This document shows positions 20,681-63,755 of a stretch of DNA of 64,000 bases, one piece after another (position 1 is the stretch's first letter; each line of letters opens with the position of its first letter). The position numbers and the translations under genes are program-made. This DNA comes from Escherichia phage vB_EcoS_HdH2, in sequence record NC_048748.1. One strand, given 5' to 3'. The notes below the pieces were generated by a model. The model saw nothing but the letters and a program-made list of their open reading frames with translations, was not told the DNA's origin and ran no database searches.

Positions 20681-22499
20681 GACACTAAAATTTAGTAACG
20701 TTATGTCTTACGGTAAGGACATCGTAATTCATTTCGATAAGAATCCAGTTACTCAACTAATTGGTGGCAATGGGCTAGGGAAATCCACCATCGCTACGGT
20801 TATCGAGGAATTGTTTTATAACAAGAACTCACGTGGTATTAAGAAAGATGCTCTGTTCTCTTGGAATGCCCCTAAGAAAGAATACGATATGCACGCTTAC
20901 TTTTCAAAAGATGATGATGAGTATGAGCTGCATAAAGTAGTTAAGTCAACTGCTAAAGTAACGTTGATTAAGAATGGGGAAGATATTAGTGGACATACGG
21001 CAACCCAAACATACAAGATAATTGAAGAGATTATGGGTGGTGACTTTCAAACATTCACCAAACTGATTTATCAATCAGTGGGTTCCAACCTAGATTTTCT
21101 AAAAGCAACAGATGCAACACGTAAGGCTTTTCTTGTTAACTTGTTCAATCAAGAGCAATACAAAGAAATGTCGGAAACTGTTAAGGCTGACCGTAAAGAA
21201 ATAGCAAATACCTTAAATAATTTGCAGGGCCAGATGGCTGTAATTACGAAAATCCTTAATGGGAAAAATAATCTCGGGAGTTTACAGGAACCGGTTGAAG
21301 TTCCTGAGTTTGATGAAGAACCATTAGCACAAGAACTTACTGAATCGAAAATTAAGGCGGCATTAGCCAAGTCTCAAGAGGCTAATATTACTAAATTGCG
21401 TAATTTGGACAAAGCTGTACAAGTTGCCGAACAATCTTTCGAGCCTTTCAAAAATTTGCCCGCGCCCACTGACCAAAACGAAGAGATCTCAAGTGTTACG
21501 CGTGACCTAACGATTGTGACCTCACGTGCGGGCGAAGTTAAGAAACGTTATCAGAAGTTCAAGCAAGAAGCTTCAAATACTGAATGCCCTACTTGTGGTA
21601 CTCATCTGGATACAACTGCTGCTCAAAAAGCAATGGATATGGCTAGAATAGAATATGATCCTCTGTTCAAAGAGAAGCAATCTCTTGAAGCTAAGCTAGA
21701 ACAGTTGAAGAAAGAACAACTTGAGTACGTTGCGTATACTAGAGCAAAGGATGCTTTGGATAAAGCGGTGGTAGCTAGAGACGAGTTCAAAAATTCAATG
21801 AGTGATGCTTCTTTTGAAGAACTCAATGTGCAAATCCTACAGGTGCAAATCCGACAATTAGAACAGGCAATCGCTGATGGACGTTCTAAGGTTGCAATTG
21901 CCAAAGAGCATAATGCAAATGTCGAATTAGCTAATGCAAAATATAAAGCGAAAATAGAACAGATTGAGAAAGCTGAAGCAGAAATGTCTGAGATTACTTC
22001 CAAACTGAATGGAGTATCAGAAGCTGTAGCTGATCTTGATATTCTAATTGCTGCTTTGAAAAATCTGGTGGGATATAAATTAGAGCATAGTGTGAAAGTA
22101 TTTGAAGAACTAATTAATAAATACCTTTCCATTATGACTGGAGGTAAATTCGCACTTGGATTTGAACTTGATGAAACAAAATTACAAGTAGTAATCTTCA
22201 ATGATGGAAACCGTACCAGTATGGAGAACTGCTCTACTGGTCAGCAAAGTCGAATTAATCTAGCAACATTGTTAGCGATTCGTATGCTGTTAACATCTAT
22301 TAGTAAAGTTAATATTAATCTTCTATTCCTTGATGAAGTAATTAGCTTTATTGATACGAAAGGACTTGATACTCTCGTTGAACTATTAAATGAGGAAGAA
22401 AGTCTAAATTCTATCATTGTTTCTCATGGGCATACGCATCCATTAGCTCATAAGATTACTGTCAAAAAAGATGCAGAAGGATTTTCCTACTTAGAATAA
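20661..22499 (+). CDS. SbcC/Rad50-like ATPase subunit (T5 D13-like)
   Basis: Start moved to ATG 20661 (MSKITIKTLKFSNV, typical Rad50 N-terminus); Walker A GGNGLGKST, zinc-hook-like CPTCG in coiled-coil, LLFLDEV near C-terminus. Confidence 0.8.
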   Translation: MSKITIKTLKFSNVMSYGKDIVIHFDKNPVTQLIGGNGLGKSTIATVIEELFYNKNSRGIKKDALFSWNAPKKEYDMHAYFSKDDDEYELHKVVKSTAKVTLIKNGEDISGHTATQTYKIIEEIMGGDFQTFTKLIYQSVGSNLDFLKATDATRKAFLVNLFNQEQYKEMSETVKADRKEIANTLNNLQGQMAVITKILNGKNNLGSLQEPVEVPEFDEEPLAQELTESKIKAALAKSQEANITKLRNLDKAVQVAEQSFEPFKNLPAPTDQNEEISSVTRDLTIVTSRAGEVKKRYQKFKQEASNTECPTCGTHLDTTAAQKAMDMARIEYDPLFKEKQSLEAKLEQLKKEQLEYVAYTRAKDALDKAVVARDEFKNSMSDASFEELNVQILQVQIRQLEQAIADGRSKVAIAKEHNANVELANAKYKAKIEQIEKAEAEMSEITSKLNGVSEAVADLDILIAALKNLVGYKLEHSVKVFEELINKYLSIMTGGKFALGFELDETKLQVVIFNDGNRTSMENCSTGQQSRINLATLLAIRMLLTSISKVNINLLFLDEVISFIDTKGLDTLVELLNEEESLNSIIVSHGHTHPLAHKITVKKDAEGFSYLE

Positions 22500-35847: not shown

Positions 35848-35956
35848 AGTTAATTTCTCCTCTTAGATACAATTATTATAATAGTATTAGAAAATTTTAT
35901 CAAGAAATTTTTATTTTTCCATAAAGAAAAGGAGGACTCAAAGTCCTCCTCCAGTT

Positions 35957-38900
35957 TTAAGAATTTCCTAGTGTTTTTAGGCTAGCACCGTTCTCATTCA
36001 GAGCTAATTCTACTGCGTCTCTTAGAGCACCACTATTACTAGAAGCAAACTCTCTAAAACTTGCAGCATCCATAGCACTAATATTCAAGATGATAGGTCT
36101 TCCTGAAGTTGAGTTAGATGAGGTTTTTAGCTCATCATTAGGCGTAGCTTTCATAGGAACCATAGGGGTAACTACTTCTGTACCATGCTCACCCATTTGA
36201 TAGCTAACCCCAGGGTACATATTACCACCCTCAGCACGAGGAACGAAAGAGTTAGCACTACCTATACCTTGATCGCCACGAATATAAGATAGTTCACCTG
36301 CATTAGCAGACATGGACACATCTATATTCTTTTGACGCTCTCCTAAGGTTAAGTAACTAGTTGTATCCGCTCCAGAATCTGCAATAGAAGACATACCAGA
36401 TGCAGAAGATGCTTGAGCAAGAGCTAAGGCACCTGCCAAACCTGCTGCCACCATCAAAGGAATAGAGAATGGGTACGGTACAGCTGTCGCCGCCTGCATT
36501 ACAGCTACTGCAGTTTGGATGATGATCTGCTTCTTAGCTGCGTCTTGTTGAATCTTCAACTTTTCAGCTTCCAACTTCTTCAACTTAGCTTTAGATGCTT
36601 CTGATTTACCATCACGTTTCTGTTCTGCTGCAATAGCCTGATCAATTGCACTAACCTGTTGACTAGTACTATATTGAATCATAGAGGCTACGGTCTGCAT
36701 ACCGGAAGCAATCATAGATGTAGTATCTAAAGATCCCTGAGAGAATTGAATCATAGCATTAGTTAGGTTACCCATGCTTTGAGCTACAGCGGTTGCTTCA
36801 GAGTTTAGCTCAGATAGTTTAGAGATTGCCTGATCATAGGAGGCCATTCTATTTTGCATATCAGCAAAATCTTTATCCTCCCCAGATAGTCCAGTTGTAG
36901 GAGTATATACAGCACCTACAGAAGATCCCACCTGTTGCTGCATCTGGGTATCTCTCTGTTTTCTAAGCTGCTCTAAGGCCGCCGAAGTTTTATAAATCTC
37001 ATTACGATATTTAATTTCTTCCTCAGTATTGCCCTTAGACAGCTCCAGCTGTTGCTGCAGAATGGATAATCTTTCAGTAAGAATTTGAGATTGACCAGTA
37101 ACATTCCTCTGCGTTTGGCTGACCTCTAGCGCATCCATGAGAGCTGATACATGTGAGGCAGTTGCCTGTTTCTCCGCTTCCCATATTTCTCTACTTATTT
37201 GTGCTTGAGCACGTCTAGACTGTTCTGCCTCTTTCTGTTTGTCCGCTTGTTTTGTATACCATTCGTACTTCTCTTTCTCTATAGTTAGTTCTAGTTTTAG
37301 CTGAGCTAATCTATATTGAGTAGTAGTCATAGTGCGGTCATTCAGAAGAGCTATCTCACGATCTACACCAAGAATTTTATCTGTGTAATCTTTAACCTTC
37401 TTCTGGGCTTCCATACCCTGATTAGTAAGTTTAAGCTTCTCCAGCTGAATTTTTTCAATTTCTTTTTCAACAGCTTTATTTCCCTGGTTTGTTTGAAGAA
37501 CACGGCGTAAAGCAGCTTCTTGCTCTTCTAACTGTTGCAACTCTAAACGTCTACCAGCTTCCTGAGCCTTTTCCTTATCCTTAGTTTGATTATACACATC
37601 GGCTATTTTCTGTTGAACTGCTAACTGATTTTTAGTTTCATTACCAGTTAGTTTAACATACTCGGACAAGGCCTGAGAAGCAGTTTTCATCTCAGATAAC
37701 GTATTATAGCCTAAATTAAGATTTTTAACATACTCATCTGCACTTTTACCAGTACCTAGAGATAGAGATTCTATGTTTTTTATAGCATCTGCTAAAGTAG
37801 CACTAGTTTTAGCAGCAGTATCTGTATTCTGAGCAACGTTCTGTATATCATTAGCTAAGTCACTAGCAGTTTTCTTAGTCTGATTGTACGCTTTCTGCTG
37901 CTCGGTTAGTCCTTTTAATACAGTAGAGTTAAAATCGTATACAGCACCAGGATCAGTAGTATCTCTCTGTAGATTAATTTGCTTCTGAAACTCGGGGTTA
38001 GCTTTTGCAGCAGCAGCTCCAGCAGCTTGATACGCTGATTTCCAGGCATTAAGGTTTTCAGTAGAATCCTCTACTTCCTTACCAAGTCTAGTTACTTGTA
38101 GACCCATAGCTGCAGTTTCTGCTACAAATTGCTTATTGGCCTCCGAAGCACCTGCTGCTGCAAGACCAACAGGAATACCTTCACCAACTTGACGTATAGC
38201 TAGTTTTGTATAGAAATCTGCTTGTTCCATTCGTTTATCGAACTCAGATTTTAGCTTATTACGCTTATCAAGAGATTCCTTATACATATCTAGAGCTTTA
38301 TTATAGCCTTCTTCAGAAGCAGCTAAACTTAAAGCAACAGCACCAACGTTGGTAGGGTCTATCTGTCTATTGGTTTTTTCTTGAGCTCTAGCTGCCTCCG
38401 CAGATACAGAAGCCTGAGAAGTATAAAATACTGTGTTGATAGCATCAATTACTGGCCCTAAGTACTTAGCAGCAGCCTGCTGAATCTTTCTCAGTGCGGC
38501 ATCAGCATTAGCGGCAAACTGCTCCCACGGAGTAGCACGTAAAACTTCATCTAAGTAACCAAAACGTTTAGTAGACTCTGCTATAACAGCATTAGCATAC
38601 GCTTGCTGTTTCTGGAAGGTAGTAAGGCTATTAATATTATATGTTATACCTGTGTTTGCAGCATTTAACTGTTTAACGTAATCAGCATAAGCATCGTTAA
38701 GACGAATAGTAACACCAAGCTCATCCAGAAGTTCGATTTCCTGTTTAGATACACCCTTAATTACACGGTTAAGTGCATCGGTCATATCAACGCCAAGAAC
38801 AGCAGCAGCACGACGAGCTACTAGACCAAATTTATTAAGTTGTTCAGCATCAAATCCGTACGCAGAAGCTGAGGATGCTTGTCTCATTGCTTCTTCAAAG

Positions 38901-39637
38901 GAGATTGCATAGCCAGCTGCCTCTTGTAGTGATCTAGCAAGGGACTGAACAGGAGTACCTGTCTGAGTACCCACTATAACACCAAATTTTTCTAGACGAT
39001 TTAGCTGATCACCTAGTTTGAGTTGTTCGAATGCAGATTGCAAAACGAAGATGTTAGAAGCAATAGCAGCGTATAATAATGGTAAACCACCACCAACTTT
39101 AGCCATTGCAGCAAAATCACGGGTAGCACCACGAGCTGAACCAGAAGTATTACCAATGGCTCTAGACGCTCTGCCAGCGGCACCAGCAGTATCATTAAAG
39201 CCTCTAGTTGTACCGCCTAAAACTCTATTGGTGTCATACAATCTATCTTGAACTTTCTCTGTTGCAGCTGCAACATCATTACCCATTGCTTTAACAGATC
39301 TAGAAACTCCATCGAATCCAATTTCTAGTTTATCTGTTACTTCAATAAGTTGGATAGCCAGGTAATCTAGCTTATCACCAATACCATCAATGGATTTAGT
39401 GATGCCAGCCATACCCCTACTAGCTTGCATTTTAGTAAGACTTTTTGCTGCTCTGTCTGCTGCCCTCTCAATGGAATATAGAGTTTTGGGCATTTTACCT
39501 AACTGTTCATTTGTCAGTTCGGAAGCAGCAGCAGCATTTTCTAATGCATCAGATACGTTTTCAATAGACTTTGCAGTACGGGTTGCCCCCTTCTGTTTAA
39601 CGTCTATTAGTAATTCTCGTATTAGCTTATCAGTCAT
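35957..39637 (-). CDS. tape measure protein (T5 pb2-like)
   Basis: 1226 aa, long coiled-coil-type sequence, hydrophobic C-terminal segment (AVPYPFSIPLMVAAGLAGALALA). Confidence 0.9.
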   Translation of the reverse strand: MTDKLIRELLIDVKQKGATRTAKSIENVSDALENAAAASELTNEQLGKMPKTLYSIERAADRAAKSLTKMQASRGMAGITKSIDGIGDKLDYLAIQLIEVTDKLEIGFDGVSRSVKAMGNDVAAATEKVQDRLYDTNRVLGGTTRGFNDTAGAAGRASRAIGNTSGSARGATRDFAAMAKVGGGLPLLYAAIASNIFVLQSAFEQLKLGDQLNRLEKFGVIVGTQTGTPVQSLARSLQEAAGYAISFEEAMRQASSASAYGFDAEQLNKFGLVARRAAAVLGVDMTDALNRVIKGVSKQEIELLDELGVTIRLNDAYADYVKQLNAANTGITYNINSLTTFQKQQAYANAVIAESTKRFGYLDEVLRATPWEQFAANADAALRKIQQAAAKYLGPVIDAINTVFYTSQASVSAEAARAQEKTNRQIDPTNVGAVALSLAASEEGYNKALDMYKESLDKRNKLKSEFDKRMEQADFYTKLAIRQVGEGIPVGLAAAGASEANKQFVAETAAMGLQVTRLGKEVEDSTENLNAWKSAYQAAGAAAAKANPEFQKQINLQRDTTDPGAVYDFNSTVLKGLTEQQKAYNQTKKTASDLANDIQNVAQNTDTAAKTSATLADAIKNIESLSLGTGKSADEYVKNLNLGYNTLSEMKTASQALSEYVKLTGNETKNQLAVQQKIADVYNQTKDKEKAQEAGRRLELQQLEEQEAALRRVLQTNQGNKAVEKEIEKIQLEKLKLTNQGMEAQKKVKDYTDKILGVDREIALLNDRTMTTTQYRLAQLKLELTIEKEKYEWYTKQADKQKEAEQSRRAQAQISREIWEAEKQATASHVSALMDALEVSQTQRNVTGQSQILTERLSILQQQLELSKGNTEEEIKYRNEIYKTSAALEQLRKQRDTQMQQQVGSSVGAVYTPTTGLSGEDKDFADMQNRMASYDQAISKLSELNSEATAVAQSMGNLTNAMIQFSQGSLDTTSMIASGMQTVASMIQYSTSQQVSAIDQAIAAEQKRDGKSEASKAKLKKLEAEKLKIQQDAAKKQIIIQTAVAVMQAATAVPYPFSIPLMVAAGLAGALALAQASSASGMSSIADSGADTTSYLTLGERQKNIDVSMSANAGELSYIRGDQGIGSANSFVPRAEGGNMYPGVSYQMGEHGTEVVTPMVPMKATPNDELKTSSNSTSGRPIILNISAMDAASFREFASSNSGALRDAVELALNENGASLKTLGNS

Positions 39638-39654
39638 ATTTTATTTTTCCCAAT

Positions 39655-39685
39655 AAAAAAGGCTCTGGGCAAATCACCCAGAGCC
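39655..39685 (-). terminator. intrinsic terminator upstream of tape measure gene
   Basis: Minus-strand ggctctggg-tgatttg-cccagagcc followed by tttttt. Confidence 0.65.
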
Positions 39686-39720
39686 AAGCCTCATCGTGGA
39701 ACGCCCATTGGAGGAAACTT

Positions 39721-40089
39721 TTACCGTGCTCGAGATTTGGCGTGCGGCTTAACGTTAGGTATTCTACCGTTTTGCGGCTTATGCTTCTCAGCACGTTTAC
39801 GTGCAGCGTCTACAGCTTTAGCATCAAATATATTGATAATGTGTAGAACAAATTCTTTTTCTATAGGATCAGTAATCCCATAAATATCAAATAAAACACC
39901 TAAAGCAGCTTTGTCTTTACCTATAAAGATAGGGAAGTCACCAGGTATGAAACAGTCAACTAGACTATTATAAATATTCATACTAATAGCTACAATAGGT
40001 GGAAAGTCTTCAAGTTCAACAGGCATAGCCTTAGGATCAGGTTCTATACCCATTGACTCACAGAGTATTAAATATTGTTGTTTAGTCAT
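39721..40089 (-). CDS. putative tail assembly chaperone
   Basis: 122 aa; position between tail tube and tape measure genes. Confidence 0.35.
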   Translation of the reverse strand: MTKQQYLILCESMGIEPDPKAMPVELEDFPPIVAISMNIYNSLVDCFIPGDFPIFIGKDKAALGVLFDIYGITDPIEKEFVLHIINIFDAKAVDAARKRAEKHKPQNGRIPNVKPHAKSRAR

Positions 40090-40150
40090 TTTAGATGCTG
40101 AGCTTTTAATACACTTATCTGCAAAATCAGCAACAGCATCTAGTAGTTCT

Positions 40151-40570
40151 TTACGCTTTTGAGCTACGAAAAGTGTCTAAATGGAACACTGTCTGGTTGA
40201 TCCAAGAATCAAACGCAGCAGAGTTCTGCATAAGCATTACAGCATTATCACGACTAAAGGGAACTTCAGTAGCAGGATCAGCATCTGTTTCAATCAGCAT
40301 GAGTTTTTCAACGTCACCCACAGTCAAACCAGTCCAACCTTTAATAGCAGCATCAACAAATGCTTCAATGAACTTATCATCATCCTGTACCTGAATCAAA
40401 GTACCATTAACCCACTCGTCACGCTTAGCAGAGGTGATAACTCGTTTAGAAGTAGCACGAGACATATAATTAAGCTCTAGCTTAAAGTTTGGCATACCTG
40501 GGTATGAAAGAGTGACAGTACGAGTATCAAGAGTAATATCTTTTAAGTTAATCATTTTTAATTTCTCCAA
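40151..40570 (-). CDS. putative tail assembly chaperone / tail protein
   Basis: 139 aa; position only. Confidence 0.35.
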   Translation of the reverse strand: MEKLKMINLKDITLDTRTVTLSYPGMPNFKLELNYMSRATSKRVITSAKRDEWVNGTLIQVQDDDKFIEAFVDAAIKGWTGLTVGDVEKLMLIETDADPATEVPFSRDNAVMLMQNSAAFDSWINQTVFHLDTFRSSKA

Positions 40571-41450
40571 AGAAATCTATTCTCACTGGGTCTGAAGAAG
40601 CAGTAGGTATAATATCCCACTCAACTTTATACACATCTGAGAAATCTAGGCGTTTTGTAATACGTGCTAAAGGAAAATCTATAGAAATATTATTATTTCT
40701 TATATTTAAAGGTACATCGGTCTCTGGTTCGATATTGTAAACCATATCTCCAGCAAAACGTTTTAAGTAATATAGAGAAATGGTTGCTGAAGCATTCATT
40801 TCATTTACATAGGCTCTTTTATTATTATAGATTTTATTTATGTCAAAAACACTCTTATCTTCTCTCCAAGAGCATTGCTGTTGAAAAGATAAAGAAGCGG
40901 AAATAAGGCCAGGTAAGATGCTACCGTTAGTAGAAGCTATTACTGGGCTATAAGATATTACTTCACCCTGTATAATAGAAGCTGCTTCTCTATATGTAGA
41001 TACTTCGGAGAATTTCCCTGACTCAATACCAACATTAAGAATTGGTATATTCTTATCTAAAGAAAAATCTACTGTAGATACATAGCAGTTCTCAAAGTAT
41101 ACACAGTTATTATCTTTATTTACTATATAGATATTAAACATAATAGGTTCAATATTGTTACTATATAGTGGTAGTAAGAAAGTATTACCTTTTCTATCAA
41201 AACCTAGCCATTCAAAGAAGTTAGCTTCAGTAAGAGTATTACTAAAATTTATTGCTAATGATATAGAAGAAGGAGTTTGAGCATTTATAATAGAGTCTGC
41301 ATAGTTAGTTCTACGATGAATAGTCCTACGAAGGGTCTTAAATTCTTCGTAGGAGGTTTGTACATCATAGTTTGATAGGGCATCAAAATGAAATGCCCTA
41401 CCATCATACTCAACTATAACTTTTGACTCTCGCATTAGAGAGTAGTACAT
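40548..41450 (-). CDS. tail protein (p140/p141-type position)
   Basis: 300 aa, directly downstream of tail tube gene. Confidence 0.4.
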   Translation of the reverse strand: MYYSLMRESKVIVEYDGRAFHFDALSNYDVQTSYEEFKTLRRTIHRRTNYADSIINAQTPSSISLAINFSNTLTEANFFEWLGFDRKGNTFLLPLYSNNIEPIMFNIYIVNKDNNCVYFENCYVSTVDFSLDKNIPILNVGIESGKFSEVSTYREAASIIQGEVISYSPVIASTNGSILPGLISASLSFQQQCSWREDKSVFDINKIYNNKRAYVNEMNASATISLYYLKRFAGDMVYNIEPETDVPLNIRNNNISIDFPLARITKRLDFSDVYKVEWDIIPTASSDPVRIDFFGEIKND

Positions 41451-41454
41451 TTAT

Positions 41455-42861
41455 TTAACCACCAGCACTAACTGTGATAGTTTTAGTACCTTCTACACCA
41501 GAACCATCTTTAGCTACAGCCTTCACAGTAACTGCACCAGTTCTAGAAGCATCGGCTGTTAATAGTCCAGATTCTGCATCAATCGTAGCTGCATTACCAC
41601 TAGAAATAGACCAAGTTACAGCCTTATTAGTAGCTTCTGGAGGTGTTACCTCAACAGACATCTGTAAAGTATTACTATTTGTTACAGAAACAGCCTCACC
41701 TGCCGATTTAACTGTAATGGATTTAACGGGAACTGGAGGAGTTTTAGCACCATCCCCCGTAGCAATCAGATTAGCCACAGTAGTTTTTGTATACTTGTTA
41801 GAAAATCCAAGATAACCTTCGTCACCAGTATCCAAATCTGTAGGAATAGCTTTAAACTCTACTGAAGTACCAAGTACATCATCAGTCTCAATAGTAGGGA
41901 TGTTAACGTGCGCCTGTTTAGCAACTAACACAGCTGCCGGTCGCTCATCATCGTATTCACCACCCAAAATAAGTGCAATTTCAAAACGGTTAACTACCTT
42001 AAGGGTTTTGACAAGATCTTTGTACAGTTCCATGGAACCAAGAGACTTATCATTAAGGTATGCTGTCAAAGAACCTGTTAACTCAAACGCACCAGTAAAT
42101 GAACCGATAGGAATATTTACACGTGACATAATATTCGGGGTTAGGTACGTGATGTTGTTATTAATGGTAAAAGTACCACCAGTAATAGGAATATCATATG
42201 CCTTATCAGAATCCATATCCTTAATTTTTAGGATAGTTAACTTGTTCTTAATGTAAGAACTCTGAATAGTCATATAGGTTTCATCATCAATACCTAATGC
42301 ATCTGGATCAAATGGTTGGCTATCTAACGGGATGAGCTGATTACCATTACCAGACCAGGTTACACGACCAATATCCTCAATATCAACGTTAACTTCTGCC
42401 TGGTTGATCTGGCAAGAGTCAATGTAACTCCACGCATTGTCAGTCAGAATGTAGATATGCAGCATAGCTAACTCATGGTAAGAATTATCTTTGAAGTTAA
42501 CCATGAAGTTAGTAGCATTATTATGTGCTCCAGTATCTCCGTCAAGATTAATAGCTTTACCACTAGAAAGTGCATGCCATAACATATAGTCAGGAACAAT
42601 TTGTTTGCTAGTAGTTTTATCCTTGTATGGCAGGATATATGTGGAGAAGCTCCACTCAGCCGCGTTCAAGGAATCGTTAAAACGTTTAGAACCACGAGTA
42701 GGACGCGGACCAGCTTCGTTAACAGTAATATCTGTTGAGTTACTGTCCTGACCCCAAGAAATATCATCCTGAACTAGAATCTCTTGCGTGTTGGTCTTAT
42801 CGTGACCAGTCTTAACCGTAGACACGAAGATTCGAGTATTACGTAATAGTTGTAAAGACAT
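41455..42861 (-). CDS. major tail tube protein (T5 pb6-like) with C-terminal Ig-like domain
   Basis: 468 aa; C-terminal Big_2-like segment ITVKSAGEAVSVTNSNTLQMSVEVTPPEATNKAVTWSISS...VTVKAVAKDGSG. Confidence 0.8.
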   Translation of the reverse strand: MSLQLLRNTRIFVSTVKTGHDKTNTQEILVQDDISWGQDSNSTDITVNEAGPRPTRGSKRFNDSLNAAEWSFSTYILPYKDKTTSKQIVPDYMLWHALSSGKAINLDGDTGAHNNATNFMVNFKDNSYHELAMLHIYILTDNAWSYIDSCQINQAEVNVDIEDIGRVTWSGNGNQLIPLDSQPFDPDALGIDDETYMTIQSSYIKNKLTILKIKDMDSDKAYDIPITGGTFTINNNITYLTPNIMSRVNIPIGSFTGAFELTGSLTAYLNDKSLGSMELYKDLVKTLKVVNRFEIALILGGEYDDERPAAVLVAKQAHVNIPTIETDDVLGTSVEFKAIPTDLDTGDEGYLGFSNKYTKTTVANLIATGDGAKTPPVPVKSITVKSAGEAVSVTNSNTLQMSVEVTPPEATNKAVTWSISSGNAATIDAESGLLTADASRTGAVTVKAVAKDGSGVEGTKTITVSAGG

Positions 42862-42887
42862 TTAATTATTTTCTCCTAATCTGTAAC

Positions 42888-43373
42888 TTATCTGCGAAGT
42901 GACCTACGTGGAGGCTGATACCTCACTGTTACATTTATTTCTGCTAAACCATATGGGGCCAGTAGACCCTCATCTGTACTAACTGATGTAATGCTCATAT
43001 CAGTCGCCTCACATGGGAAGGTCGATCCATTAGGTTTACTAACAGTATATTCTAAATTTCCACCTGTGTCAATAACGGTTTTTATATCCGCTACGAGTTT
43101 TTCAAGTTGCTCTTGAATGTCTGTTTTCTCTTTATCATACACCAGGATAGGAAGTTCTAAAAACATCCACTGTTGACCTGAGGGAAGATACTGCCCAGTT
43201 TCAGTTCCGATATGAACTGCAACATAAGGAAACTCTCGTATCTCCTCAAACTTATAAGTTTGACGTGAGACGTTTCCATACAAGTTATTAAAATATTCAT
43301 CTGGTTGAGAGCCATCCATTTGTTTGGCTATTCGGTCAACCAGAGCTTGTGCTATACTTGTTCTGTGATCCAT
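42888..43373 (-). CDS. head-tail joining / tail completion protein (by position)
   Basis: 161 aa between capsid and tail tube genes. Confidence 0.35.
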   Translation of the reverse strand: MDHRTSIAQALVDRIAKQMDGSQPDEYFNNLYGNVSRQTYKFEEIREFPYVAVHIGTETGQYLPSGQQWMFLELPILVYDKEKTDIQEQLEKLVADIKTVIDTGGNLEYTVSKPNGSTFPCEATDMSITSVSTDEGLLAPYGLAEINVTVRYQPPRRSLRR

Positions 43374-43376
43374 TTA

Positions 43377-44144
43377 TTAGGTTCCTTGATTAACCTTAAT
43401 TTTGTACCTGGAGTGAATTAAGTCTCTTGCAGCTTTAGCTATCGCCTCTCCAATTAGTCTTTGGGGGTTTCTAGCACCTGGGTAGGGTCGTAATGACAAT
43501 CTTCGATATGTAGATACTGCAGGATTAAATACTGAATATGGACGTACCATATAATTATATGTAACATTTAATTCAGGAGCACCTTTGCTAGTTCCAGCAT
43601 CTCTAAGCATAACATCTTTAACTTTTAGAGAATTTGCAAAACGACCTGTTCTAAATTTAAGGGGAGCTCCTGCTTTTTTCATATCCTTTATTAAGTATTC
43701 TTTAGCAACCAACTCCAGAATAACCTTCATATTACTATTTGATACAAAACGACCAGAAGCACCTGTTACTGCACCAGAATATCCATCTTCTACGTCTCTA
43801 GGATCCCCAAAGTTTACTTGAACTCTACCAGTAGAACGTTTTTTACCTATAGAGGATTTTTTACCGGCGGTTGCTTGAATAAGACTTTCTAAAGCCCCTA
43901 AGTCTCCTGTTAGATCTAAGCTAGAAGAAACTGCTTTTAGAATAGAAGCGGTCCTAACATTAAGGAGATCTTGGGATACAGGTTTTGAGAACTTAAAAGA
44001 TACCTGAGCAACAGTACCATCCCTAGTAGGATCTTTTAGTCCTGTTTCAACAGAATATACAACAGTATTCTTATTGTTCTCGGAACGCCCAACATTATCT
44101 AGCTGCTCCTTAATAATTTGTGTAGCTAAATCAGAAAGAGACAT
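43377..44144 (-). CDS. head-tail joining protein (by position)
   Basis: 255 aa; position only. Confidence 0.35.
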   Translation of the reverse strand: MSLSDLATQIIKEQLDNVGRSENNKNTVVYSVETGLKDPTRDGTVAQVSFKFSKPVSQDLLNVRTASILKAVSSSLDLTGDLGALESLIQATAGKKSSIGKKRSTGRVQVNFGDPRDVEDGYSGAVTGASGRFVSNSNMKVILELVAKEYLIKDMKKAGAPLKFRTGRFANSLKVKDVMLRDAGTSKGAPELNVTYNYMVRPYSVFNPAVSTYRRLSLRPYPGARNPQRLIGEAIAKAARDLIHSRYKIKVNQGT

Positions 44145-44656
44145 TATACTCTCCTGTAAACTTCAATAATAGTACGAATATGTTCTGGAATACCAGACTT
44201 AGTATTATTAAAAGTAACTGTTTCTCCACCAATTGTTTTAGCTTGACGGTAATCCTGTTTATGCCAATGATCTACTAGCATACATGCTGCAAGTTTGAGA
44301 TCTTCAGGAATTGGGTTAAATCCACCTTGTGTGTACTCTACATCCATATAACCTTCTGGAGGACTAAATTTAAGAAGTATAACCCCATCAGAATACAACT
44401 TATACTGTTCAGGATCTATCTCCTTGTCGTTAATAGTCATTTTGGTTACTGAAGTAGCCGAGGGAGAACTTAAGAAGTATTTTTTACGAGTAGGTTTTGT
44501 ATTGATTAACTGGTCTACCGCATCAGCATCATCCATACCCAGGAGGCTGGTAATCAGCGCGTTGGCAGCAGTAATCATCATTTCTACACCAGATTCTAGT
44601 TCAGGTCGTTTTAACCCGCCGTATAATCTATAGTCTTCAGCTGTGATTATTTGCAT
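44144..44656 (-). CDS. head completion protein (by position)
   Basis: 170 aa; first gene after the post-capsid terminator. Confidence 0.35.
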   Translation of the reverse strand: MQIITAEDYRLYGGLKRPELESGVEMMITAANALITSLLGMDDADAVDQLINTKPTRKKYFLSSPSATSVTKMTINDKEIDPEQYKLYSDGVILLKFSPPEGYMDVEYTQGGFNPIPEDLKLAACMLVDHWHKQDYRQAKTIGGETVTFNNTKSGIPEHIRTIIEVYRRV

Positions 44657-44670
44657 TTATTTTTCCCAAT

Positions 44671-44696
44671 AAAAAAGGAGAGCCGAAGCTCTCCTT
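44671..44696 (-). terminator. intrinsic terminator after major capsid gene
   Basis: Minus-strand ggagagc-ttcg-gctctcc followed by tttttt. Confidence 0.7.
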
Positions 44697-44715
44697 ATCG
44701 GCTGAAAAGCCTGTA

Positions 44716-46092
44716 TTAAGCGGTAGCGTAAGCACCGGATACAACACCATTACTAAAGTAACGTTGCAGGTTAACACGCTGAGTAACGTAGTATGCATCA
44801 CGCTGTTTACCAGCTTGGCGCTCACGTTCAACAGTAACAGCACGCTGACGTGGCATTACGAAGTTATCTTTATAAACAATAACTGCGAACTCTTTCTCAG
44901 CCGCTTTAGCTGGGAAGTACTCAGAAACCACAACCGGCAGACCATAAATACGACCAACCTGACCTTGCAGTTTAACAGCATCGTTACCAACCTGTGCAAC
45001 ATCCTGCCATTCTTCATCTTCCAGAAGATCATAATAAGCATCCATAGATACGATAAGTACCAGTTTGCTCAGTTTCAGACCATGACGGCCCAGTTTACGA
45101 CGCAGTTTAGAGATAGTTTTAGCAGTTACCAGAACAGAACCATCAGCTTTAGCTTCAGTAGTAACTTTAGCACCATCATCTTCAGCCAGTTTCAACAGAC
45201 CTTTCGGCTTACCAGTACCATCACCAGTCATAAAAGCTTCTTCGATAGAAACAGCGTGTGCTTCAATCAGACGCTTACGCAGCAGCGGCAGCAGGGAGAA
45301 GATTGCATCTTCTTCAGTTTCATCAGTAATGAAGGACTTAGCAGCCAGTTTGTAGGTTTTAAAACTAATTTCAGTTAATGTACCTTTAACTTCGTTACCA
45401 ACAGTAGCATCAGTACCGTAGGAACCAGCATCTACCCAAGTAGCTTTTCCAGCTTCAGGCTCAACCAGCATAGTAAGAATTTTGCTGGACATTGGCAGTT
45501 CATCGAACAGTGCACCAACTACTAACTCTTTCTGCAGGTCACGAAGGATACGGGTAGAGAAAATAGTTTCGTAGTTTTCACTGGAAACCTGTACAGAGGA
45601 AGAAGTATTAACAGCTTTAACGTGGGCTTTACCATGTTCAGTTTCAAATACGTCCTTCTCCATCATATAAGACAGGAGAACTAGTTTTTCAACTTCATCT
45701 TCAAAAGCTTCCTGAGTACCATACAGTGCTTTAGCTACACTATCACCGACGAAGGAACGACCTTCACGAGCTGCTAGCAGAGATTTAATTTCATCCTGAA
45801 GACCAACAATGGTTTCCTGCTGCTTTTCTACAGTCTGTGCGAACAGTTCTGCGCTCTTTTTAGATTTTTCATCCAGGGACTTAACCAGTTCCAGAGCTTG
45901 TTCCAGTTTCTGACGATCTTCGCCAACTGCTTTAGAAACCAGGTCATTCATACGAGCCAGTTCTTTTTCTTCCTGCTCTTTACGCATACGTTCAGCTTCC
46001 TGAGCTTTCTGAGCAGCGGTCAGACCTTCCAGAGATTTAGCCAGATCACCCAGACCAAGTTCTTCTTTCAGCTTATTAATATCAATAGTCAT
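44716..46092 (-). CDS. major capsid protein precursor (T5 pb8-like, HK97 fold)
   Basis: 458 aa; host-optimal codon usage; N-terminal coiled-coil scaffold-like region. Confidence 0.9.
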   Translation of the reverse strand: MTIDINKLKEELGLGDLAKSLEGLTAAQKAQEAERMRKEQEEKELARMNDLVSKAVGEDRQKLEQALELVKSLDEKSKKSAELFAQTVEKQQETIVGLQDEIKSLLAAREGRSFVGDSVAKALYGTQEAFEDEVEKLVLLSYMMEKDVFETEHGKAHVKAVNTSSSVQVSSENYETIFSTRILRDLQKELVVGALFDELPMSSKILTMLVEPEAGKATWVDAGSYGTDATVGNEVKGTLTEISFKTYKLAAKSFITDETEEDAIFSLLPLLRKRLIEAHAVSIEEAFMTGDGTGKPKGLLKLAEDDGAKVTTEAKADGSVLVTAKTISKLRRKLGRHGLKLSKLVLIVSMDAYYDLLEDEEWQDVAQVGNDAVKLQGQVGRIYGLPVVVSEYFPAKAAEKEFAVIVYKDNFVMPRQRAVTVERERQAGKQRDAYYVTQRVNLQRYFSNGVVSGAYATA

Positions 46093-60085: not shown

Positions 60086-60181
60086 TTATCCACAGCACAA
60101 AATGATTTGACACGATAGGCGGCGATATACGGGCTTATCCACAGACTTATCCACAGGTTATCCTACTGTATAAATATACAG
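60086..60181 (+). promoter_or_regulatory. left inverted-repeat module: three DnaA boxes plus a LexA-like SOS box
   Basis: TTATCCACA at 60086, 60135, 60147; CTGTATAAATATACAG at 60166..60181. Confidence 0.7.
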
Positions 60182-62948: not shown

Positions 62949-63025
62949 TAATCACGGGGCGCAACTATCAGGGAGTGCCCCAATTCCCAAATGAGAATCA
63001 TTCTCATTTGACCGCGCCCGTGATG

Positions 63026-63093
63026 GTTAGCCCGCTAACGATTAGGGTGTTACGTGTTGCCTTGTGTGATCGTTAGCGGGCTAACTAATTTTT
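63026..63093 (+). terminator. large hairpin plus T-run after the small-gene operon
   Basis: gttagcccgctaacg ... cgttagcgggctaac (15-bp arms, ~30-nt loop) followed by taattttt. Confidence 0.45.
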
Positions 63094-63205
63094 AAGCCTC
63101 CTCCAATTTTGCCCTTGTTTTAGTATCCCCACCAAAATTAAACGCGTTAGAATGCGATTCAGGACGTTTTAGCGGTATATTAGAATTATTCACTACATAG
63201 GAATA

Positions 63206-63313
63206 CTGTATAAATATACAGTAGGATAAGCTGTGGATAAGTCTGTTAATAACGCCTCAAAATGGCTAGGATTCTGTCAAGTCAAATCGTGCTGTTAATA
63301 AGTCTGTGGATAA
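63206..63313 (-). promoter_or_regulatory. right inverted-repeat module: LexA-like SOS box plus two DnaA boxes
   Basis: TACTGTATAAATATACAGTA (19/20 to LexA consensus); TGTGGATAA at 63232 and 63305 (TTATCCACA on minus strand). Confidence 0.7.
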
Positions 63314-63511
63314 CTTAAATAACAGTGTTTCTCACTTCCATTCTTAAACGAGAATGATTCTCATTTGCATTCCACTGTCTAACCGATAATCATTTCCTTT
63401 CTTAAATGAGAATCATTTCACTTTTTGAATAGTTCTCATTTCACTTCTTAAATGAGAATCATTATCATTCGCATTCCACTTCTTAAATGATAATGATTCT
63501 CATTCAAAGTC

Positions 63512-63536
63512 GCAGGGCAATTGCCCTGCGCTTTTG
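63512..63536 (+). terminator. palindromic hairpin plus T-run
   Basis: gcagggcaattgccctgc followed by gcttttg. Confidence 0.5.
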
Positions 63537-63755
63537 TGCAAATCCGACATGTGCTCCAAGGGTTACGTGCTGGCGTGTATGTGCAAATCCGACAATTTTT
63601 GGTAGTGTGCAAATCCGACCCGAAAAATTTATAAATTCGTGAGAGTGACGAATCTGTCTCCTAAAAACTCCAGCAATCACGAACTGCGTTCGAATCCTGT
63701 GGAATTAGCTAGAGTATGTGCAAATCCGACATGTGTTGAGCTGTGCGAATCCGAT
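63536..63755 (+). repeat. five direct repeats of GTGC(A/G)AATCCGA(C/T)
   Basis: Copies at 63536, 63581, 63607, 63718, 63743 with irregular spacing. Confidence 0.7.

Follow-up and report, generated by a model that had tools for sequence, protein, structure and literature searches.

Intra-operon terminators that act as attenuators are known from phage T7, where T-phi follows the major capsid gene 10, and from E. coli, where an attenuator lies between rplL and rpoB; the internal terminator of rpsU-dnaG-rpoD, in which dnaG has a weak ribosome-binding site (RBS), is a further example. AU-rich, S1-dependent translational enhancers occur upstream of weak or absent Shine-Dalgarno (SD) sequences in E. 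coli and phage mRNAs. Operators of the T4 RegA type are AU-rich as well, overlap the ribosome sites of several genes and are bound by one repressor. T5-type sigma70 promoters have an A-rich -43 region (PMC3326045; PMC7472727), with an AAAAATT block upstream of the -35 hexamer (PMC3326045).

The DNA analysed here, referred to as the window, is a stretch of 64 kb (64,000 nucleotides, record NC_048748.1) from Escherichia phage vB_EcoS_HdH2, a T5-like Tequintavirus (Demerecviridae), whose late (virion) genes are on the minus strand of the window. A 701-nt query around the locus matched 443 phage records, the top one being Salmonella phage GEC_vB_N5 (98.3% identity). An earlier reading of the sequence alone had described an identical leader, preceded by a terminator and lacking an SD sequence, upstream of two late genes, and had proposed that it acts as an enhancer of translation, depends on read-through and tunes the stoichiometry of late proteins. 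The two genes encode the tape measure protein (site 1) and the head completion protein (site 2), and both of these genes for low-copy virion proteins stand right behind high-demand transcription units.

As in the intra-operon attenuators, at these sites a hairpin and a U-tract stand behind a high-demand gene, no promoter follows, and the low-copy genes downstream need read-through, while a weak ribosome site would cut their output further; unlike in those systems, the ribosome site abuts the U-tract without a spacer, and the same junction is found twice in one operon. The locus resembles the AU-rich S1 enhancers in having a weak SD with a U-rich tract on its 5' side and an A-rich spacer, but here a 4-nt SD core is conserved and the U-tract is primarily the tail of a terminator. 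As with T4 RegA operators, two genes have one and the same AU-rich sequence across their initiation regions; however, there are two sites only and no candidate repressor, and the sequence tolerates indels and is lost at one site of T5. Finally, a degenerate third copy of the motif (35932-35910) lies directly upstream of the -43 region (AAAAATTT) of a T5-type promoter, whereas sites 1 and 2 are not followed by -35 and -10 hexamers. The features concerned are the following.

35875..35951, minus: site 3, comprising a terminator (35951-35929), the motif copy TTTATGGAAAAATAAAAA and the promoter TTGATA-17-TATAAT (35903-35875)
35957..39637, minus: ORF of 1226 aa, tape measure / pore-forming tail tip protein pb2
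39638..39651, minus: site 1 RBS, GGGA (39651-39648) and the A-rich spacer AAAATAAAAT (39647-39638), followed by ATG (39637-39635)
39652..39660, minus: site 1 U-tract TTTTTTATT, identical with the first 9 nt of the leader as first described
39661..39685, minus: hairpin of the site 1 terminator, GGCTCTGGG-TGATTT(G)-CCCAGAGCC, between the chaperone ORF and the tape measure gene
39686..39720, minus: non-coding box AAGTTTCCTCCAATGGGCGTTCCACGATGAGGCTT, 35 nt, directly 3' of the chaperone stop codon
39723-39721, minus: chaperone stop codon, 5' of the tape measure gene
43044..43072, minus: intragenic sigma70-type promoter TTGACA-17-TATACT, in the 161-aa tail terminator gene
44144..44656, minus: ORF of 170 aa, head completion protein (Pfam PF24163, E=4e-80)
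44657..44667, minus: site 2 RBS, GGGA (44667-44664) and the spacer AAAATAA (44663-44657), followed by ATG (44656-44654)
44668..44676, minus: site 2 U-tract TTTTTTATT
44675..44696, minus: site 2 terminator hairpin (AA)GGAGAGC-TTCG-GCTCTCC(TT), UUCG tetraloop, 3' of the major capsid gene
44700..44711, minus: small hairpin GGC-TTTTCA-GCC, 3' of the capsid stop codon and 5' of the terminator
44718-44716, minus: stop codon of the major capsid gene

Copies of the repeated block

The block CTTTTTTATTGGGAAAAATAAA is present in exactly two copies in the window, both on the minus strand. The two sites share the same layout, that is, a GC-rich hairpin followed by TTTTTTATT, GGGAAAAATAA(A) and the ATG: site 1 reads GGCTCTGGGTGATTTGCCCAGAGCC TTTTTTATT GGGAAAAATAAAAT ATG (tape measure gene, start 39637) and site 2 reads GGAGAGCTTCGGCTCTCC TTTTTTATT GGGAAAAATAA ATG (head completion gene, start 44656). 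The exact block common to both is 22-23 nt long and was recovered independently by a repeat search (family D7, 23 nt). Letters, layout and coordinates of an identical leader behind a terminator were therefore confirmed for both genes. In the motif search, which the sequence-only reading had proposed for the whole genome as a check, the 17-mer had only two exact copies within the 64 kb, and no extra copy was found in a further 50 kb of a 98%-identical genome. Hits with 2-3 mismatches were found at 21256 and 62719 on the plus strand, both within coding sequence and at chance level (0.82 expected). A degenerate third copy, TTTATGGAAAAATAAAAA (83%), lies at 35910-35932 on the minus strand, 3' of the terminator that follows the tape measure gene (site 3). 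The repeat is real, non-random and confined to sites 1-3.

Similar sequences are also found outside the T5-like phages. In a marine siphovirus contig (L012 9511-9527 / L066 3128-3144), whose tape measure protein is about 30% identical to those of Pseudoalteromonas phages, a different terminator hairpin and TTTTTTATTGGGAAAAATAAATGAC precede a 639-aa tape measure gene, in a stretch identical to that of the window over 25 nt; a Firmicute prophage-like contig (L087) carries a terminator and the motif as well. The 19-mer has more than 120 copies in bacterial genomes of many phyla, and among 120 copies examined 12 are directly behind a perfect hairpin and 13 run into TG. Considering this abundance and the enrichment of T-runs at terminators, outside occurrences are expected from database size, and the marine and Firmicute copies were judged a coincidence and given no weight as signs of a wider, independent motif.

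Other repeats were observed in the window. Highly similar T5-type promoters, AAAAATTTA-TTGCTT-N17-TATAAT-A, were recovered as direct repeats on the plus strand (positions 2205, 5747, 6775, 7991, 9345, 13884, 18365, 18465 and 52616). The palindrome TACTGTATAAATATACAG, which has the CTGT-N8-ACAG form of a LexA (SOS) box, is present in two exact copies (60164-60181 and 63204-63221). Direct-repeat clusters occupy 62981-63504 and 63528-63738 in a non-coding stretch; the repeat ..AAATGAGAATCATTCTCATT has 5-6 copies and GTGCAAATCCGACA has 3-5, with two more at 21828-21859. These clusters are probably the repeat-rich non-coding region that has been described for T5 and BF23 (PMC10644984).

Terminators and ribosome-binding sites across Demerecviridae

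At both sites a GC-rich stem-loop followed by a U-rich tract was found on the transcribed strand, downstream of a stop codon, and both hairpins scored as terminator-like in a consensus scan. At site 1 the stem comprises 11 bp, 7 of them GC pairs (centroid structure, about -20 kcal/mol), and the site 2 hairpin has a stem of 7-9 bp and a UUCG loop, then TTTTTTATT. Orthologous loci were collected from IMG/VR and GenBank and comprised Epseptimavirus, Sugarlandvirus, Priunavirus PR1, contigs L153 and L154 (taken as the Pectobacterium My1/DU_PP_V group), contigs L161 and L163 (matching the Proteus phages Stubb and PM135), and three more distant lineages, with MCP matching Vibrio phages. Across genera, the site 1 stem shows compensatory changes in 5 of its 10 pairs, with 98% of the cells paired; the observed covariation values were reached by 0-1 of 500 shuffles, and slid controls came nowhere near them. 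An example of compensation is the change between genera from GGCTCTGGG/CCCAGAGCC to GGCCTAGGG/CCCTAGGCC. The site 1 U-tract is invariant from Tequintavirus to Priunavirus and Sugarlandvirus and lies within the terminator feature annotated in BB1.

The site 2 hairpin GGAGAGC-UUCG-GCUCUCC has the same letters in seven lineages, while the site 1 hairpin covaries freely in those genomes. In the three most distant (Vibrio-type) lineages, unrelated GC-rich hairpins with a T-tract occupy the site 2 position. The GGC...GCC stem of the small hairpin is retained with other loops in PR1, Uniso31 and DU_PP_V, and some relatives (contigs L109 and L111) have a differing sequence upstream of the site 2 terminator. 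The stems are thus kept up in evolution, by compensation at site 1 and by replacement hairpins at site 2, and the intrinsic terminators that had been noted upstream of both genes are borne out by the comparison across genera. Judging from these alignments, the hairpins are genuine terminator-type elements and functional RNA structures. Terminators are also annotated in public records, at all three sites in BB1 (hairpin and TTTTTTATT), at site 1 in PR1 and at site 2 in Sepoy. No Rfam 15 match was obtained at E<=1 over 39000-45500, and the literature searched contained neither a mapping of transcripts or termination for the T5 late genes nor a reference to the repeat.

The absence of an SD sequence, as originally claimed for the leader, is not supported. 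At both genes the GGGA that follows the U-tract can pair with the 3' end of 16S rRNA as a 4-bp SD core at -4.2 kcal/mol, as calculated by hybridisation, and is separated from the ATG by 10 nt at the tape measure gene and by 7 nt at the head completion gene. The complementarity therefore lies 5-10 nt 5' of the start codon, as in an SD-led RBS, and the leader does not lack usable anti-SD complementarity, although the match is weak: in SD strength the two genes rank 22-23 among 27 late genes. A site of like type, GGGAAAG (-4.3 kcal/mol), precedes the baseplate hub gene, and the sole truly SD-less late ORF is 39721..40089 (-0.1 kcal/mol). The RBS region is predicted to be largely unpaired. A stable UUUAUU-GGGAAA-AAUAAA hairpin that would present the SD was considered and rejected, being absent from the centroid and minimum-energy folds. 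Curated RBS annotations mark GGA in Sepoy (7 nt 5' of each ATG) and GGAA in phiR2-01.

In every terminator-bearing lineage a purine-rich SD comes immediately after the T-tract, and another 6-10 nt lead to the ATG. At the position of GGGA other genera have GGA, GGGT, GAGG, GGAG, AGAGG, AGGTG or AAGGAG, canonical SDs included; the GGGA position is therefore the SD position, and the term SD-less is untenable. The RBS variants across lineages are GGGAAAAATAAA, GGAAAAAATC, GGAAAAATATA, GGAAAAATT, TGAGGTAATAAA, AGGTGAAATTCAA and AGGTAAAAT at site 1, and GGGAAAAATAA, GGGTAAAAT(AA), AGAGGTATATA, TGGAGTAAAT, GGGGGCAAG, GGAGAACAAG and AAGGAGAGAAT at site 2. The site 1 spacer differs among strains in both length and sequence (TAAATG, TAAAACATG, TAAAATATG, TAAATTATG), and natural variants include A4/A5/A6, T5/T6/T13, GG/GGG/ATTAGG and a spacer insert of 0 or 3 nt. 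This tolerance of changes in run length and spacer fits a ribosome site and not a precise operator.

Phage T5 itself has a 249-aa ORF inserted at site 1 exactly between TTTTTTATT and the ribosome site (L148 5392-6232). The ORF has CapR-homology and treble-clef zinc-finger domains, and its equivalent is named a putative homing endonuclease in a related record. The T5 tape measure gene is preceded by ...ACAGGAAAACATTAG-ATG in place of GGGAAAAATAAA.., so that this viable and much studied phage has no leader directly behind the terminator at this gene. The insertion indicates that the two halves of the block are separable. What had been called a conserved leader is thus a real block, but one made of two fused things, 9 nt of terminator tail and a ribosome-binding site.

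On this evidence we consider it probable that the repeated block is the junction of a terminator U-tract with a weak but real ribosome-binding site. Curators of the records of BB1, Sepoy, PR1 and phiR2-01 had already divided the sequence in this way, into terminator and RBS, and elements of this kind are well known. That the two copies are identical is most readily accounted for by common ancestry or gene conversion, together with the same constraints acting on low-complexity sequence. It has to be considered, however, that the two ribosome sites are identical over 13-14 nt past the U-tract, which is more than a weak SD alone requires and counts against this explanation.

Alternative readings of the block

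Initiation independent of the SD, with the A/U-rich leader acting as an S1-dependent translational enhancer and GGGA irrelevant, is unlikely. The low hybridisation energy and rank of the SD would agree with it, as would the predicted lack of pairing in the RBS region and, by analogy, the U9-type tract and A-rich spacer that flank the site, since this is the composition of known AU-rich enhancers. On the other hand, a GG core is present in every lineage and natural variant, canonical SDs replace it in distant genera, and the A-tract itself varies (GGGTAAAAT, AGAGGTATATA, AGGTGAAATTCAA).

The conservation of the intergenic regions deserves consideration on its own. Both are nearly invariant over their whole length: 20-24 distinct sequences of Tequintavirus and Epseptimavirus have a mean pairwise identity of 0.985-1.0 there, as compared to 0.74-0.89 at neighbouring third codon positions. 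Absence of the motif in related phages had been named as a ground for giving up the leader; this ground falls away, as the motif is invariant in these 20-24 sequences. It is not more conserved than the remainder of the intergenic region. In the Providencia phage PR1 a 46-nt site 2 block is identical to that of the window, hairpin included, with flanking proteins only 57% (capsid) and 30% (head completion protein) identical. At site 1, the box AAGTTTCCTCCAATGGGCGTTCCACGATGAGGCTT is invariant in 35 of 35 columns in 20 distinct close relatives and is kept in six lineages, with one copy per genome and in Demerecviridae only; it contains the anti-SD-like UUUCCUCC and a conserved GAGG partner. The box is non-coding, because 1-nt indels across genera exclude coding. 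A coding cause for the conservation of site 1, through the +1-frame ORF 39630..39794, was likewise rejected, since 1-nt indels in the loop and the box break any common frame across genera.

Conservation beyond the apparent need of a terminator and a tolerant ribosome site makes an added sequence-specific constraint possible. Considering the PR1 46-nt block and the invariant UUUCCUCC box, there is a small chance that the near-invariant cassettes serve a sequence-specific post-transcriptional control through which production of the tape measure and head completion proteins is coordinated with the upstream genes. Such control could be exerted by an RNA-binding factor, or by anti-SD:SD pairing across the terminator that ties the tape measure gene to chaperone translation.

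The second of these mechanisms, taken by itself and for site 1 only, is improbable. It holds that UUUCCUCC pairs with the SD region of the tape measure gene across the terminator, so that translation of the tape measure protein would need a ribosome terminating on the chaperone ORF (long-range translational coupling). RNAalifold predicts a UUUCC:GGAAA helix around the intergenic region, with 94% of the cells paired and one compensatory pair, and the invariant box is able to form a duplex with each of the SD variants observed (-4.9 to -6.7 kcal/mol in all seven lineages). Nevertheless, this pairing is predicted with a probability of about 0 for the window, Epseptimavirus and Proteus sequences and of 0.3-0.4 for two lineages only, and local folding of the box with the conserved GAGG is more frequent. 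Moreover, the sequences are of low complexity, the structure was derived from the same alignment, and site 2 is left unexplained.

Slightly less probable still is a common operator, formed by the 22-mer or by the whole cassette, through which a trans-acting post-transcriptional factor would co-regulate both genes; candidates would be a phage translational repressor resembling RegA of T4, Hfq binding to the (ARN)3-like AAAAAUAAA, CsrA binding to GGA, or RNase E with an entry site. The perfect identity of the two sites, the near-invariance of the intergenic regions with respect to flanking synonymous sites, and the identical PR1 cassette between diverged proteins all speak for it. Against it, there are only two copies per genome, the sites diverge from each other elsewhere (as in DU_PP_V, GGAAAAATT vs AGAGGTATATA), homopolymer and spacer indels are tolerated, the motif is missing at the T5 tape measure gene, and no Rfam family matches.

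A role of the A-rich block as UP element (-43 region), in late promoters from which both genes would be transcribed, is very improbable. The AAAAATT block of T5-type promoters, which the repeat families D1, D2 and D4 represent in the window, and the degenerate third copy upstream of a strong promoter are in its favour. However, -35 and -10 hexamers spaced by 16-18 nt downstream of the A-rich block were found at site 3 and not at sites 1 and 2, where no acceptable pair follows and any start would fall inside coding sequence. When a promoter matrix was built from nine T5-type promoters of the window, sites 1 and 2 ranked 701 and 1623 among 128,000 positions and site 3 ranked 18.

A -1 programmed frameshift at GGGAAAA (G_GGA_AAA), comparable to the lambda G/GT site, has a formal X_XXY_YYZ fit and at site 1 is in register with the +1-frame ORF 39630..39794, but it is effectively refuted by the reading frames and has next to no likelihood, because site 2 is untranslated sequence behind stop codons, the 0 and -1 frames at site 1 stop within 3-6 codons, neither joins the tape measure frame so that no -1 frame is productive, and loop indels break the common frame across genera.

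A separate observation, unrelated to the motif and the most promising side lead, concerns the ORFs 40151..40570 and 39721..40089, located between the tail tube genes and the tape measure gene. They overlap in the +1 frame (40151-40176, minus strand), and an overlap of 14-56 nt is found in six Demerecviridae lineages. It always contains TTT CGT (40171-40166), where a slip of tRNA-Phe from UUU onto UUC would be possible. An SD is lacking at the second ORF (-0.1 kcal/mol), whose frame is conserved as amino acids upstream of the annotated ATG, at which Sugarlandvirus has Ile. The overlap suggests a candidate +1 programmed frameshift that would give a G/GT-like fusion. T5-like chaperones are said to lack a predicted frameshift signal (PMC6256483), and the overlap may be that supposedly missing signal. 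A naturally fused chaperone homologue was sought among the Vibrio-type relatives and not found: a long ORF there, considered as a single fused chaperone, proved to be an unrelated protein.

Read-through and the layout of the late region

In a consensus scan, no sigma70-type promoter was found between the terminator and the ATG at sites 1 and 2. It follows that either gene has to be expressed from read-through RNA, and in this respect the dependence on read-through that had been proposed holds. At site 3, instead, the promoter serves the distal tail protein gene, and the layout of terminator and promoter is retained in all genera examined. The intragenic promoter in the tail terminator gene lies 211 nt upstream of the tail tube gene in the window; hexamers and spacing are the same, at a distance of 204-211 nt, in the four genera Tequintavirus, Epseptimavirus, Priunavirus and Sugarlandvirus. 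This promoter would restore transcription past the site 2 terminator.

Under the preferred reading, the block would combine the U-tract of an intrinsic terminator (UUUUUUAUU) with a minimal RBS, consisting of GGGA, an unstructured A-rich spacer of 7-10 nt and AUG, at two attenuation points of the late operon, one between the capsid and head completion genes and the other between the chaperone ORFs and the tape measure gene. The host RNA polymerase would stop at the hairpin in some fraction of rounds, so that the low-copy genes downstream would be present only on read-through transcripts. Ribosomes would then start at the weak SD, kept single-stranded by the flanking U- and A-runs, and the U-tract may double as a landing site for S1. 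Together with the terminator and promoter of site 3 and the promoter before the tube gene, the junctions would split the late region into units with mRNA levels that match the stoichiometry of the virion.

The late region may thus be laid out as the capsid unit, a terminator, the neck genes (low), a promoter, the tube and chaperone genes, a terminator, the tape measure gene (low), a terminator with a promoter, and the baseplate genes. This arrangement of sites and promoters suggests a transcriptional tuning of stoichiometry. The tuning put forward by the sequence-only reading is plausible from the layout of terminators and promoters, but mainly at the transcriptional level.

The case calls for caution: when a conspicuous exact repeat turns up in the DNA of an AT-rich phage, it may be two mundane signals fused, and the lack of GGAGG is not equal to the lack of an SD sequence. 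If a dedicated regulator or a long-range coupling did exist, it would give a handle on how siphoviruses match tape measure with chaperone synthesis. The locus documents the placement, in T5-like phages, of terminators, weak ribosome sites and promoters that restart transcription, for an unequal output of capsid, neck, tube and tape measure proteins.
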